A stretch of DNA of 47,271 bases from the NCBI GenBank assembly GCA_963706285.1, contig CAVPLU010000017.1, positions 1 to 47,271 of the forward strand, given 5' to 3'. Under the pieces are notes generated by a model, which searched no databases, was not told where the DNA came from, and worked only from the letters and a program-made list of their open reading frames with translations. Shown here piece by piece: positions 26,104 through 41,254 of this stretch; within the stretch, counting starts at the first letter, position 1, and each line of letters starts with the position of its first letter. The position numbers were made by a program, and so were the translations under genes. Source of the DNA: Candidatus Bathyarchaeota archaeon. GTDB taxonomy: Archaea; Thermoproteota; Bathyarchaeia; 40CM-2-53-6.

Positions 26104-27543
26104 ATGCCTGTCCCAATTAGGGATGCGCTGACTTTTGACGACGTGCTACTAGTTCCCAAACGCAGCTCAGTTCATTCAAGAAAAGACGTGGATCTTTCAA
26201 CGAGGCTCAGCAGGAATATCAAACTCAATATTCCGATCGTGAGCGCGAACATGGATACCGTCACCGAGTCATCCATGGCCATATCGATGGCGCACAACGG
26301 CGGAATCGGCATCATTCACCGTTTCATGTCCATGGAACACCAAGTCGAAGAAGTACTGAAGGTTAAGCGATCAGAGAGCGTGATCATCGAAGAGCCATAC
26401 ACAATTTGGCCAAGCGCCACAATGGCTGACGCAAAGAGGCTGATGCAAGAGAAAGGCGTAAGCGGACTACTCGTGGTTGACGCCAACAAGAAACTGGTCG
26501 GCATTATCACTGCCCGCGATCTGCTGTTCGAAGAGAACGACTTGAGCAGAGTCTCCGAACTGATGACGCCGATGAAGAGTCTTCACACGGCTCGAGCGAA
26601 TACGTCGATTGATGAGGCGAGGCAATTACTGCGCAAATACAAAGTTGAGAAGCTTCCACTAGTTGACGACGAAGGCCATCTTCATGGTTTAATCACAAGC
26701 AAGGATATGGTGACGATTGCGGAGTCGCCGCAAGCTTGCAAGGATTCCAAGGGTCAGCTCCTTGTTGGAGCAGCGGTCGGCATAAAGGAAGGCTACCTTG
26801 AGAGAGCACGAGCCCTCGTCGACGCAGGCGCTGACGCGCTAGTAGTCGATGTCGCACACGGCCATTCTGACAGAGTCCTCAACGTGATTCAGAAACTGAA
26901 GAAGGAGCTCAGTCAAGTTGACGTGATCGCTGGGAACGTGGCAACGCCTGAAGGAACAAAGGATCTAATCGCAGCAGGCGCCGACGCTGTGAAGGTTGGG
27001 ATTGGCTCAGGATCCATATGCATAACAAGGATCGTTACCGGGGCGGGAGTGCCACAATTGACAGCTGTTCTCGAATGCGCTGAAGCCGCGGAAGCGTCAA
27101 GGATTCCAATAATCGCAGACGGTGGAATCAGAAACTCAGGAGACATCACCAAAGCACTCGCGGTAGGCGCTTCAAGCGTAATGATAGGAAGCATGCTAGC
27201 GGGAACCGAGGAAAGCCCCGGCGTCACGGTCATGCGCAACGGTAGAAAATACAAACTCCACAGAGGAATGGCTTCTGTTGGAGCTTCAATGAAACGTGGA
27301 ACACAGGAAGCAGAAGACGAAGCAGCGCTCCTAGAGTATGTGGCAGAAGGTATCGAAGCATTCGTACCATACAGAGGCGCCTCTCACGAGATAATCGCTC
27401 AGCTGACAGGCGGCATCCGCTCCGGGCTGAGTTACAGCGGCGCGAGAACACTTGCCGAATTGCGTCAGAATGCGTCGTTCGTGCGTTTGACTTCTGCAGC
27501 GCTCAAGGAAAGCTATCCACACGACGTCGAAAGCATCGACTAG
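26104..27543 (+). CDS. guaB: IMP dehydrogenase with CBS pair
   Basis: [23 protein letters not shown] domains, DVAHGH, the active-site [19 protein letters not shown] and RGMAS. Confidence 0.97.
26969..27543 (+). repeat. Direct repeat copy 1 (3' 575 bp of guaB)
   Basis: Aligns by eye with 40677-41254 from TCGCAGCAGG to the stop codon. Confidence 0.95.
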
Positions 27544-27574
27544 TCGACGGACAATCCAGACGAACATAAAAGAA

Positions 27575-28004
27575 CTAAGACAAGTCCTCGTTGGTCAATA
27601 TTCGAGCGCCGATTTCGTGCAAGCGTCTCCTCAGTCTTCTTCTGATCATCCGTCCTAAGTATCAAGCCCAAGCTGCCACTGATGAAAGAGGATGTTGAGT
27701 AAGCGTAATCGATATTTAATCCGATTTCACCCAGCTTCTCTGCAATACTCGACAGTTTGACTTCGTTCGTGATTAGAACGCCTGTGACCTCGACATTCTT
27801 CTTCGATTTGGCAAGACTAAGACCGCAGCTCTCAAGATGTTTAGCCACTTTTTCAGGTTCAGATACAATGAGTCGAATGAGCCCAAATTCTCCAGCCTCC
27901 GCAATAGAGAGAGCAAACACCTTGAAGTCTTCAAGATCCGCAAGCACCTGCGCCATCTTTCCCGGCTTGTTTTCCATGAATACACTTAGTTGATGAAGAG
28001 TCAT
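27575..28004 (-). CDS. ACT-domain protein (type commonly linked to paaK/ior); frameshift near the 3' end
   Basis: MTLHQLSVFMENKPG...ALSIAEAGEFGLIRLIV...NIDYAY. The corrected tail GARILTNEDLS* ends at 27575. Confidence 0.85.
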
Positions 28005-28097
28005 ACCGCGCCACACCGAGTTGTAGAAACTCAACCTATCTTATATTTGATTGCCACTAGCTAAGTCAGCCAACTCGAAATGAACTGAACGACGAGA

Positions 28098-28871
28098 GTG
28101 CGAGCCTTGCTAAGATGTGTCGATGTTGCCAAGAGCTTCGGCGGTCTCCAAGCTTTGAAGTCTGTGACCCTGACGGCAGATGATCAGAAGATCACCGGAA
28201 TCGTAGGACCAAACGGGTCCGGTAAGTCAACTCTCATGAAGCTGATCAGCGGATTCTATCGCCTCGACAGCGGGGACATCATCTTTGACGGACGCAAAAT
28301 AACGAACCTTCATTCACATGACATCTGCAGGTTGGGGATATCAAGAACTTCACAGATTGTTCAAGCCTTCTACGGAATGACCGTACTAGAGAACGTTCTA
28401 GTAGGTTCGACTTTCGGAGCAGCAAACAGAGTTCCCGCATCCGACCGTAGGCAAGCGGCCGAAGAGACGCTAAGCATGGTCAACTTCCCACCTGAAAAGA
28501 TCAACAGCCTTGGAAGTGATCTCACAATAGCTGAACTCAAGCGGGTTCAACTCGCAAAAGCTCTCGCCAGCAAACCGAAGCTTCTGCTCCTCGACGAGCT
28601 CCTAACCGGCCTCAACCCCACAGAATCTGATAAAGAGATCCAGCTCATCAGGAAGATCAGTACCCTCGGAACCTCAATCATAATCGTCGAACATGTAATG
28701 CGAATCATCATGGGATTGTGCGACAAGGTGATCGTACTTCAGCACGGAGAAAAAATAGCAGAGGGGACTCCCCAGGAAATCTCCAAGAAAGATTCTGTTG
28801 TAAAGGCGTACCTAGGAAGAAAGTATGCGCTCCACGAAGACAACAACGTCGCCCAAGGAGTCACAAAGTAA
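28098..28871 (+). CDS. livG: Liv-type ABC transporter ATP-binding protein (LivG-like)
   Basis: GPNGSGKST, LLLLDE, IVEHVM, AEGTP...AYLG. Confidence 0.9.
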   Translation: MRALLRCVDVAKSFGGLQALKSVTLTADDQKITGIVGPNGSGKSTLMKLISGFYRLDSGDIIFDGRKITNLHSHDICRLGISRTSQIVQAFYGMTVLENVLVGSTFGAANRVPASDRRQAAEETLSMVNFPPEKINSLGSDLTIAELKRVQLAKALASKPKLLLLDELLTGLNPTESDKEIQLIRKISTLGTSIIIVEHVMRIIMGLCDKVIVLQHGEKIAEGTPQEISKKDSVVKAYLGRKYALHEDNNVAQGVTK

Positions 28872-39898: not shown

Positions 39899-40153
39899 AT
39901 GAGTGTTAGAAAACTCGTCCTGCAACATCTACTCGGCAATAGCACGCACAAGATAGACCGACAGAGCTTGAAGAAGGTGATCACATTCACGGTCGGCTGG
40001 CAACTGTTCGGCATTGCCTTCTGGTTCTTCGTGGACACACAGATCCTTGGAATCAGTGTCGCACAGTTTCTCGGCTCCGGAGCCTTCGGTACAACGTGGG
40101 CGTTCATCGACAAGGTCGTAATGACGGGCATAGTACTGAAGATAGTCCGGTGA
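39899..40153 (+). CDS. Small hypothetical membrane protein
   Basis: 84-aa ORF from ATG 39899 with a GAGG SD and hydrophobic segments (ITFTVGWQLFGIAFWFF; ILGISVAQFLGSGAFG). Confidence 0.55.
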   Translation: MSVRKLVLQHLLGNSTHKIDRQSLKKVITFTVGWQLFGIAFWFFVDTQILGISVAQFLGSGAFGTTWAFIDKVVMTGIVLKIVR

Positions 40154-40167
40154 TAGTGGACTTGGTG

Positions 40168-40605
40168 CTAGAGATCAGCCTGAACGCGTTCGCTTGTTCC
40201 GTAAGAGGTACCACGGAAGTGAGCAATTGCCACACCCTGTTGATTAGTGACTGTGACATCGTAGATTCCTATTCTTCCAGTGAGTAATCTCTCTTCTGCC
40301 GTTGCAGTGAGTGTATCCCCCTTCACCGCGCTAGCTGAATAATTGATGTTGCAGGTGAGGGCTAGCGTTTTTCTGTTACGCGAATTGCAAGCATACGAGA
40401 ATGCTACGTCTGCCAAAGTGAAAGTGATACCGCCATGACAAATGCCGAAACCATTCAACATGTCTTCCCGCACTTTCATTAGCACTTTCGCAAAGCCAGG
40501 TCTTATGATCTCAAGTGTTATGCCGAGAGCTTGAGCTACATTATCCGATTTGTTCATGGCAATTCCGATACACTCTGCAATGCGCTGCGCTTCATCGCTT
40601 TCCAT
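40168..40605 (-). CDS. paaI: PaaI-type hot-dog acyl-CoA thioesterase
   Basis: MLNGFGICHGGITFTLADVAFSYACNS and GIYDVTVTNQ...AHFRG. Confidence 0.92.
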   Translation of the reverse strand: MESDEAQRIAECIGIAMNKSDNVAQALGITLEIIRPGFAKVLMKVREDMLNGFGICHGGITFTLADVAFSYACNSRNRKTLALTCNINYSASAVKGDTLTATAEERLLTGRIGIYDVTVTNQQGVAIAHFRGTSYGTSERVQADL

Positions 40606-40676
40606 TGGTTATCTCAAGGCTCAGGAAGAGCTACTGTTCTATGAAGCGTACGGTCACCAGTTCAACTGAAAGCAAT

Positions 40677-41254
40677 TCGCAGCAGGTGCTGACGCTGTGA
40701 AGGTTGGGATTGGATCAGGGTCCATATGCATAACACGAATCGTCACCGGAGCCGGAGTTCCACAATTGACAGCTGTGCTCGAATGCGCTGAAATCGCAAG
40801 GAAGAGTCAGATGTTCCAATAATCGCAGACGGTGGAATCAGAAATTCAGGAGACATCACCAAGGCACTCGCGGTGGGTGCTTCGAGCGTAATGATTGGAA
40901 GCATGCTAGCGGGAACCGAGGAAAGCCCGGGCGTCACGGTCATGCGCAACGGTAGGAAGTACAAACTCCATCAGAGGGATGGCTTCTGTTGGAGCCTCAA
41001 TGAAACGTGGAACACAGGAAGCAGAAGACGAAGCCGCGCTCCTGGAATATGTGGCAGAAGGTATCGAAGCATTCGTACCATACAGAGGCGCTTCCCATGA
41101 GATAATAGCCCAGCTGACAGGCGGCATCCGCTCCGGCCTGAGTTACAGCGGCGCGAGAACACTTGCCGAATTGCGTCAGAATGCATCGTTCGTGCGTTTG
41201 ACTTCTGCAGCGCTCAAGGAAAGCTATCCTCACGACGTCGAAAGCATCGACTAG
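40677..41254 (+). pseudogene. guaB: 5'-truncated second copy of the guaB 3' end (direct repeat copy 2)
   Basis: Begins just before [18 protein letters not shown] and ends ...HDVESID*. It has no start codon and +2 and +1 indels relative to copy 1. Confidence 0.93.

Follow-up and report, generated by a model that had tools for sequence, protein, structure and literature searches.

A metabolic gene cluster between two copies of the guaB 3' end in a Bathyarchaeia genome: probable insertion with a replacement gene end from a related lineage

Introduction

Bathyarchaeia are abundant, uncultured archaea and, to our knowledge, the exchange of metabolic genes among them is essentially undescribed. The contig CAVPLU010000017.1 of a Candidatus Bathyarchaeota archaeon (GenBank assembly GCA_963706285.1) raises a question of this kind: how did a 13-kb gene cluster come to lie between a working guaB gene, coding for IMP dehydrogenase (IMPDH), and a second, headless copy of the guaB 3' end? 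The window analysed here is the whole of this contig (C17, 47,271 nt), which belongs to a metagenome-assembled genome (MAG, G000) of 21 contigs and 2.13 Mb with a completeness of 89.2% and a contamination of 7.47%. An initial annotation, made from the letters of the window, had described the locus as a metabolic island inserted into guaB with a replacement 3' half of the gene and no integrase.

The analysis makes it highly probable that a 13.7-kb stretch (about 26969-40676) was inserted into a resident guaB at about codon 289. Very probably, this insert joins the final 575 nt of a guaB that came from a closely related lineage of Bathyarchaeia to a 13.1-kb cluster. In all likelihood the imported end completed guaB in frame, and the resident end was moved 13.7 kb downstream, where it then acquired two frameshifts. 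A whole predicted amino-acid-fermentation module (transporter, indolepyruvate:ferredoxin oxidoreductase (IOR), second 2-oxoacid oxidoreductase, CoA ligase and thioesterase) is found in this way inside an essential gene, the gene is not disabled and no recombinase accompanies the module.

The 3' end of guaB occurs twice

The guaB gene (26104-27543, + strand) codes for a full-length IMP dehydrogenase of 479 aa, with a match to the complete Pfam IMPDH domain (1-345/345), a pair of CBS domains, a TIGR01302 score of 570 bits (cut-off 481.5) and, as read in the translation, the catalytic loop GSGSICITR. By direct-repeat search and alignment, the last 579 nt of the gene were found repeated at 40677-41258 with an overall identity of 92%, in three collinear blocks: 26969-27089/40677-40797 (89%), 27090-27260/40800-40970 (92%) and 27261-27547/40972-41258 (95%). 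The repeat starts inside codon 289, three codons ahead of the catalytic loop, and ends 4 nt past the stop codon. These two copies of the guaB 3' end are the only ones in the whole MAG. The initial annotation had listed an intact guaB, a cargo and a headless copy of the last ~575 bp of the gene, beginning just before the active-site loop, and this arrangement was confirmed by the repeat search, the alignment and the Pfam and TIGR01302 matches.

Compared with the intact gene, the downstream copy (40677-41258, + strand) carries 41 substitutions and two insertions, one of 2 nt after the equivalent of 27089 and one of 1 nt before the equivalent of 27261. Third codon positions hold 33 of the 41 substitutions, and 33 are synonymous and 7 are not; this shows that the two copies were working genes of separate lineages while they diverged, and that their differences are due neither to chance nor to sequencing error. 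The sequence TCGCAGCAGG at 26969-26978 is common to both copies, the first site that distinguishes them being 26979. With the mosaic breakpoint after 26957 described below, the insertion point or crossover interval is placed at 26958-26978 (+ strand), within codons 285-292.

Inside the repeat, ten base changes specific to the intact gene are crowded into the 14 nt of 27090-27103, making residues 330-334 unlike those of all relatives, and this patch coincides with the site of the 2-nt insertion in the fragment (40797-40812). The two sites may represent a local slippage hotspot or a compensated frameshift.

The initial annotation had also pointed to a small palindrome near the right junction. 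CAGTT-C-AACTG is indeed present at 40658-40668, 8 nt from the junction, but the window contains 40 palindromes of this 5-1-5 type, so that its position is not above chance and we give it no weight as a recombination signal. No tRNA gene or known RNA was found at the junctions, either in the window or on the contigs of the sister species G001 described below, and no inverted repeat of at least 30 nt is present within 24000-44000.

The working gene is a mosaic

Which of the two copies is resident was judged against L064, a 2,080-nt metagenome contig with an uninterrupted guaB of a close relative. The intact gene is 92.9, 95.0 and 91.0% identical to L064 in three 5' segments and 85.1, 86.5 and 89.4% identical after 26969; for the headless fragment, the values are 93.4, 96.5 and 94.4%. 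Expressed as counts, the intact gene differs from L064 at 60 of 865 sites (6.9%) before 26969 and at 60 of 472 (12.7%) after it (Fisher p 0.0006), and the fragment differs at about 25 of 472. The maximum-chi-square breakpoint between the intact gene and L064 falls after 26957, 12 nt from the start of the repeat (permutation p 0.008). In two control comparisons, of the intact gene with G008 and with L055, divergence was equal in the 5' and 3' parts (p 0.89 and 1.0), and four further control pairs gave no significant difference at 26969 (Fisher p 0.05 to 0.44). The breakpoint scan is not quiet in every control, since for three of these four pairs the scan placed a significant best breakpoint at another position (after 26321, 26516 and 26591, with permutation p of 0.018, 0.029 and 0.005).

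The maximum-likelihood tree of the 3' part has the topology (intact,(fragment,L064)), in which the inner pair has a support of 98/80 and the trio one of 100/99, and the tree of the 5' part is (L064,(intact,L088)), the trio having 100/100. Among the 472 sites, 36 are private to the intact gene, the fragment there agreeing with L064, and 27 of these are third positions; 20 sites are private to L064, one is private to the fragment and at 4 all three sequences differ. Shared-derived states link the fragment to L064 at 13 sites and to the intact gene at 6, the latter weakly polarised. Informative sites are interleaved along the repeat, and no gene-conversion or sub-mosaic tract is visible within it. 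In the 90% protein cluster of guaB, the fragment-type residues 328-334 are present, uninterrupted, in four further full-length members; of the 7 other members that extend over this patch, none has the version of the intact gene, AAEASRI.

The working guaB is thus composed of a resident 5' part and an imported 3' part (26969-27547, + strand), and the headless copy is the displaced resident end. The earlier proposal that a replacement 3' half was inserted and the original displaced is borne out by the mosaic breakpoint, by the pairing of the fragment with L064 and by the four cluster members. In L064 and in these four members guaB runs uninterrupted across codon 289, and none of them shows the flank from 41259 onward.

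The right junction in other data and in a sister species

Logan contigs from the runs X1, X2, X4 and X5 were mapped to positions 36000-47271 of the window; as the run shares were at most 0.24, no habitat is named. An 881-nt contig from run X2 covers 39854-40734 and crosses the junction between cargo and fragment, with 58 nt on the fragment side. This contig comes from a different strain, since it has 21 mismatches and 2 gaps against the window. The region 41640-47271 had little or no cover in the four runs and no contig passes over 41258, from which we draw no conclusion.

The sister species G001 carries the cargo on two short contigs, C67 and C70 (about 12.9 kb, ~91.5% identity), the core DNA of the two genomes being 86-95% identical in eight pieces. 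The cargo matches of G001 span 27581 to 40692 of the window, minus 39420-40151. At the right end, the end of the cargo is followed by about 17 nt of the guaB fragment, with fragment-type bases, and then by sequence repeated in G001, G002 and G009. At the left end, the homology stops at the stop codon of the ACT-domain gene, the first gene of the cargo; beyond it lie unique DNA (about 290 nt) and an ilvE-like gene with 77% identity to contig C3 of G000, and no guaB sequence is present on this flank. The presence of the junction in both the X2 contig and G001 means that the headless guaB behind the cargo is real, which requires an insertion into guaB somewhere. The right junction is supported by independent data.

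Short members of the guaB protein cluster are found on other contigs. Those of 184 aa start at the first GTG after the in-frame stop of the junction and those of 84 aa start after the +1 frameshift, and judging from these start points both fit the same headless copy elsewhere. Short dispersed repeats were observed on both flanks of the G001 cargo (L048 8358-8543 on C67; L049 355-406 on C70), with 7 matches in G001, 5 in G002, 7 in G009 and 1 in G000.

The MAG itself contains two co-binned strains, many contigs duplicating parts of others with 92-97% identity. Contig C7 matches C6 over all its 28 kb (1-28058 against 19255-47319) with 96.3% identity and 38 gap openings, C20 matches C4 with 93.6-95% and C10 matches C11 with 93.4%. 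Further duplicate pairs are C4/C5, C2/C9, C15/C16 and others. No second version of C17 was found in the MAG among the listed matches of at least 438 nt.

The cargo

The region between the guaB copies contains 13 open reading frames (ORFs; 27540-40605), all of which are metabolic, concerned with transport or of no family. No recombinase, transposase or phage domain was detected in them by searches with Pfam (all ORFs), NCBIfam (nine ORFs) and PHROGs (five ORFs). Composition gives no signal, since the G+C content is alike and flat over cargo and flanks (about 0.47-0.54).

The first gene codes for a pair of ACT domains (27540-28034, - strand; Pfam ACT_8). Compared with the G001 ORF, it has a 1-nt frameshift near its 3' end, because of which the present ORF is 13 codons longer and overlaps the guaB stop in antisense; its ancestral stop was near 27572, about 28 nt from that of guaB. 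A Liv-type ABC transporter follows (28098-31577, + strand; Pfam ABC_tran, BCA_ABC_TP_C and BPD_transp_2), with two ATPases (28098-28871 and 28718-29572, the true start of the second probably being near 28868; + strand) and two permeases (29719-30615 and 30615-31577; + strand). The next two genes, also on the + strand, code for a PaaK-like aryl-acetate/phenylacetate-CoA ligase (31574-32878; Pfam AMP-binding_C_2, with the PaaK models as best NCBIfam matches, below their cut-offs) and for a Liv-type substrate-binding protein (32924-34174; Pfam Peripla_BP_6).

The remaining genes are on the - strand. The IOR (34250-36708) is formed by a beta subunit (34250-34861) and an alpha subunit (34858-36708), with 771 bits to TIGR03336 (cut-off 650.9) and the Pfam domains POR, POR_N, TPP_enzyme_C and Fer4. 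A second 2-oxoacid:ferredoxin oxidoreductase (36779-39315) has a beta subunit (36779-37603) and a fused gamma/alpha subunit (37600-39315), assigned by Pfam and by 629 bits to TIGR03710 (cut-off 482.75). An ORF of 141 aa (39706-40131) has no match in Pfam, NCBIfam or PHROGs; the segment that contains it, 39420-40151, is absent from the G001 cargo and present in Logan contigs of X2, X4 and X5. The last gene codes for a PaaI-type hotdog thioesterase (40168-40605; TIGR02286, 139.5 bits, cut-off 118.9), whose 90% protein cluster has twelve more members, from other assemblies. Between it and the guaB fragment lies the right end of the insert (40606-40676, no strand assigned), 71 nt upstream of the thioesterase start, which contains the palindrome, is conserved in G001 and is spanned by the X2 contig. 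From these family assignments, the cargo is predicted to be a cluster for the uptake and the ferredoxin-dependent oxidation of aromatic and branched-chain amino acids.

Recombinase genes

The statement that the island has no integrase was confirmed for the cargo and for the MAG as a whole: PF00589, PF16795 and PF00239 gave no match in the 2.13 Mb of G000, and the control genomes were positive. In the same way, no recombinase or mobile-element gene was found in the G001 copy of the cargo (about 12.9 kb on the two contigs). A transposon or casposon would be expected to have inverted repeats at its ends, a short duplication of the target and a gene for a transposase or casposase; the insert does not fit this, since 24000-44000 has no inverted repeat of at least 30 nt and the cargo has no such domain.

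PF00589 is present in 5 of the 9 other genus members. Three matches were obtained in G001, two above the family cut-off and the one on C188 below it. The corresponding ORFs (L272 44-1102, L273 3-962 and L274 3-923) are each at a contig end, and they adjoin core DNA syntenic with contig C4 of G000 at 279519, 410197 and 257591. No tRNA gene was found near them, and G000 does not have these ORFs.

Distribution among relatives

The relatives compared were 401 genomes of the class Bathyarchaeia, 43 metagenome guaB loci, 80 viral contigs (IMG/VR) and 82 phage records. An orthologous guaB, in one copy and with 79-91% aa identity, is present in 6 of the 9 other genus members; G001 and G002 have no ortholog and G005 has a paralogue of 43% only. 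The guaB flanks of G000 differ on both sides from those of all six congeners. Upstream of guaB, a gene of 475-510 aa (as two ORFs in one of them) is present in 6/6 congeners and missing in G000, and downstream of guaB G004, G006, G007 and G008 have genes syntenic with G000 C8 from about 21600. The 51-55 nt directly upstream of guaB are 91-94% conserved, and window positions 8500-19100 are syntenic with G008 DNA located 9 kb from guaB. The part of the upstream flank between 19100 and 26050 is variable, and L088, the closest metagenome contig, lacks the RibD_C gene (25372-25950) found there. On contig C8 of G000, the C-terminal ~95 residues (21569-21898) are left of a 315-aa gene, which in G008 and G004 lies downstream of guaB and leads into the region syntenic with C8 22000-35000; on this comparison of gene order, C8 21569-21898 appears to mark a rearrangement breakpoint.

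The cargo DNA is present in 2 of 10 genus members, G000 and G001, and absent in the five congeners tested. The ACT gene has homologues in 58 of the 401 class genomes and in 1 of 58 other family members (G001), i.e. 2 of 59 with G000. An ACT homologue and guaB stand on one contig in G000 alone among the 401 class genomes, and the cargo lies beside guaB at none of the 43 metagenome loci. Distant Bathyarchaeia have only the IorAB pair in common with the cargo, and not the whole block; L105 shares only IorA-KorBA, up to window position 39364. No relatives of IorA were found in the viral contigs.

The initial annotation had suggested that guaB is an integration target in this archaeon and had asked for a survey of further 3' duplications. 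An insertion into guaB very probably took place here, but recurrent use of the gene as a target is not supported: no other guaB 3' fragment of the same type is present in the 401 class genomes (144 of which have matches to the guaB C-terminal half), at the 43 metagenome loci or on the 80 viral contigs. At the 80 IMG/VR loci the IMPDH/GMP-reductase genes are either full-length or lack the CBS part, two being truncated by the end of a contig, and none is a viral carrier of a guaB 3' fragment. The 82 phage records gave no such fragment among the 40 that were listed. As to the donor, no protein cluster other than that of guaB itself exceeds 94% identity over residues 289-479. A search for shorter ORFs returned only distant fragments (at most 68%), several of which begin at V296; these are not placed on contigs and we attach no conclusion to them.

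The downstream flank

A second headless remnant begins 40 nt after the guaB fragment. It corresponds to the last ~19 codons of a saccharopine-dehydrogenase-like gene (41298-41357, + strand), is 88% identical to the 3' end of an ORF of 422 aa in G004, and has no orthologue in G000. A decayed type I restriction-modification locus then extends over 41950-47269 (+ strand; Pfam N6_Mtase, Methylase_S, HSDR_N, SWI2_SNF2 and T1RH-like_C). Its hsdM is in at least four pieces, with N6_Mtase positions 2-24, 37-176, 172-221 and 224-278 in different frames, hsdS is intact (43434-44696) and hsdR is split (45055-46068, and 46136 to the contig end). A link between C17 and C8 through hsdR was considered and rejected, the remainder of hsdR being absent from the MAG.

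How the insertion may have arisen

The initial annotation had offered two routes, mobilisation in trans or a single crossover of a circle with a guaB anchor, and had not chosen between them. We tentatively favour a homology-anchored insertion without a recombinase, from a congeneric donor, because the cargo has no mobile genes, the repeated block is long, the arrangement does not recur, a sister strain coexists in the sample and the neighbouring DNA bears scars. The donor would have had a guaB already followed by the cluster, with the ACT gene convergent to it across a spacer of about 28 nt, and its DNA would have met the recipient chromosome in a sample in which two populations of 92-97% identity coexist. 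The incoming DNA has a stretch of 579 nt homologous to the insertion locus, with 92% identity, and the switch is located at the extreme 5' edge of this homology (26958-26978). After a break in the recipient guaB, the donor guaB could have been invaded and its 3' end copied together with the cluster, followed by end-joining across the break; or a circularised donor fragment with a guaB anchor could have entered by a crossover at the homology edge. Either route would leave the donor end in register and the resident end headless from the break onward, and later the two guaB-derived arms would permit spread or loss of the island by homologous recombination. Break repair puts the switch and the headless start at one point, as seen, and a circle does so only if the crossover resolves at the very edge.

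Several observations weigh against this. No donor-type arrangement was found, the cargo being beside guaB at none of the 43 metagenome loci and an ACT homologue and guaB being on one contig, among the class genomes, in G000 alone, and the imported-type end was found nowhere else (none of the 7 members that cover the patch; no other cluster above 94%); the donor lineage may simply be unsampled. A crossover of a homologous circle within the first ~10 of 579 nt would be unexpected, and the break-repair route is general knowledge of which we know no demonstration in Bathyarchaeia. Help in trans is plausible, because tyrosine recombinases circulate in the genus and stand, in G001, beside the ends of core protein-coding regions. 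The junction of G001 is common to both genomes despite a cargo divergence of 8.5%, and the fragment of G000 is almost unchanged, which fits an element that carries its junction with it; by rough reckoning, a pseudogene as old as this divergence should carry tens of changes. Recent arrival of the island with its junction, overwriting by working alleles, or a consensus drawn to other strains could each account for the near-unchanged fragment. An island that hops between coexisting Bathyarchaeia populations by means of its two guaB arms, with no recombinase of its own and with a fresh headless copy made at each arrival, would explain the G001 junction at 8.5% divergence, the few changes in the fragment and the open 184-aa headless copies elsewhere; we regard it as unlikely. 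Possible but doubtful, in our view, is a site-specific integrative island, for which a tyrosine or serine recombinase would have acted on a core at about codons 289-292, with the remaining 575 nt carried by the attachment site of the element (attP) and the recombinase later deleted or supplied in trans. The architecture is that of gene-3'-replacing islands, the breakpoint lying at the start of the repeat, the target being restored and the resident end displaced, and attP replacement sequences are given as an established rule in excerpts of PMC10111431; yet the 579-nt block is far above the 'up to ~250 bp' quoted there for the identity of attachment (att) sites. Of 68 integrated elements of thaumarchaea, 14 lie within protein genes, in the 3'-distal part, according to the excerpted part of PMC6563490, but no guaB 3' fragment recurs among the 401 class genomes, the 43 loci, the 80 viral contigs and the 82 phage records (40 listed). 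PF00589 genes exist in 5 of the 9 other genus members, although none of the 13 cargo ORFs is a recombinase or mobile gene, and none was found in the G001 copy or anywhere in the G000 MAG. A junction that travels with its element is expected of such an island, and the junction is the same in G001 (8.5% diverged) and in X2, with the fragment nearly undecayed. If the recombinase was deleted, its place would have been the interval from the guaB stop to the ACT gene; G001 has additional DNA there, with the ilvE-like gene, possibly the former site of an integrase module; this G001 flank is nevertheless free of guaB sequence, and there is little room for arm sites because the insert ends about 28 nt and 71 nt from the cargo genes.

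Two other explanations would do without an insertion of this kind. We find it quite improbable that the assembly is a chimera of two coexisting strains, in which the mosaic guaB, or the link between the copies, would not be on one molecule. The MAG contamination of 7.47% and the inter-contig duplicates of 92-97% (96.3% for C7 and C6), the same divergence as that of the guaB copies, are what a chimera would draw on; the imported-type 3' end is known from this contig alone, the left junction (27547/27548) and the one at 41258 are without independent support, and a near-ancestral fragment could come from consensus building or polishing with the reads of several strains. The junction of cargo and fragment is, however, bridged by the non-identical X2 contig and present in G001, a random strain switch within 12 nt of the repeat start is not expected, the frameshifted reading (84-aa ORF) recurs on other contigs, and the assembly is not error-ridden, since no more than 38 gap openings separate C6 from C7 over 28 kb. 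Hardly credible is an in-place duplication of the guaB 3' part in this lineage, for example as a long target duplication made at the arrival of the cargo, with later divergence of the copies. It would predict changes mainly in the unconstrained copy, and the reverse is seen: the constrained copy has 36 private sites (27 in third positions) and the unconstrained one has 1. In an approximately unbiased (AU) test, a tree that pairs the two G000 copies is not rejected (p 0.176), a result that also tells against the import of one of them, and 6 weakly polarised shared-derived sites join them; set against this are the 13 shared-derived sites of the fragment with L064 and the favoured tree, in which these two are paired (98/80).

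If the recombinase-free, homology-anchored reading is true, housekeeping genes would be landing pads for large adaptive clusters by means of homology alone, and such islands would escape island finders based on integrases. If an unseen recombinase is responsible, the site would define an att core that can be used to look for it.

Comparison with known systems

Prophage e14 is an example of an element at the icd site. In islands and prophages of this gene-3'-replacing type (icd-type elements and tRNA-gene islands), as described in the excerpts of PMC10111431, a 3' segment borne by the element restores the target, the original end is displaced to the far side and the direct repeats start at the crossover, as at guaB. 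The guaB island differs from them (relative to the same excerpts) by the absence of a recombinase in the MAG, a repeat of 579 nt compared with 'up to ~250 bp', a metabolic cargo and copies that are 92% identical. It is a recombinase-less form of the gene-end-replacing island, so far in one Bathyarchaeia lineage.

Archaeal integrated elements also use protein genes as targets (14 of 68 in the part of PMC6563490 cited above), but they encode an integrase or a casposase and have short att or target-duplication sites (PMC6563490, same part), whereas the guaB island has a site 60% into the gene, a 579-nt repeat and no integrase. The orphan 3' modules of Rhs, CDI (contact-dependent growth inhibition) and T6SS (type VI secretion system) effector loci resemble it more in their course. 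There, incoming DNA with a new 3' part and its linked genes is anchored by a conserved 5' part, the former 3' end is left headless downstream and no site-specific recombinase takes part; passages of PMC5361080 ascribe this to homology-facilitated illegitimate recombination. Those loci are polymorphic toxin-immunity systems under diversifying selection (PMC5361080, same passages), whereas guaB codes for a housekeeping enzyme, the protein sequence given by its two 3' parts is almost the same, and what is linked to it is a catabolic cluster of 13 kb.

The name of the prophage Ana29.79.guaB, in the excerpts of PMC10111431, shows that guaB is the target of at least one bacterial prophage. This prophage is likened to the guaB island by its target gene and not by position, and it differs in being 79 kb long, integrase-bearing and in a bacterial host. 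A literature search by titles and abstracts returned no archaeal integration site or genomic island at guaB.

Other IMPDH sequences

C-terminal IMPDH ORFs of 185-189 aa were observed in distant organisms (P0150, P0154, P0159, P0197 and P0211). Their common start is the V/M-K-V-G position just ahead of the catalytic loop; some are on contigs of 8-10 kb, and they could be contig-end artefacts or headless copies. A second IMPDH paralogue, about 44% identical, is present in many relatives (G005, G006, G009 and many class genomes); G006 has both IMPDH types within 7 kb, and the G000 assembly has the first type only.

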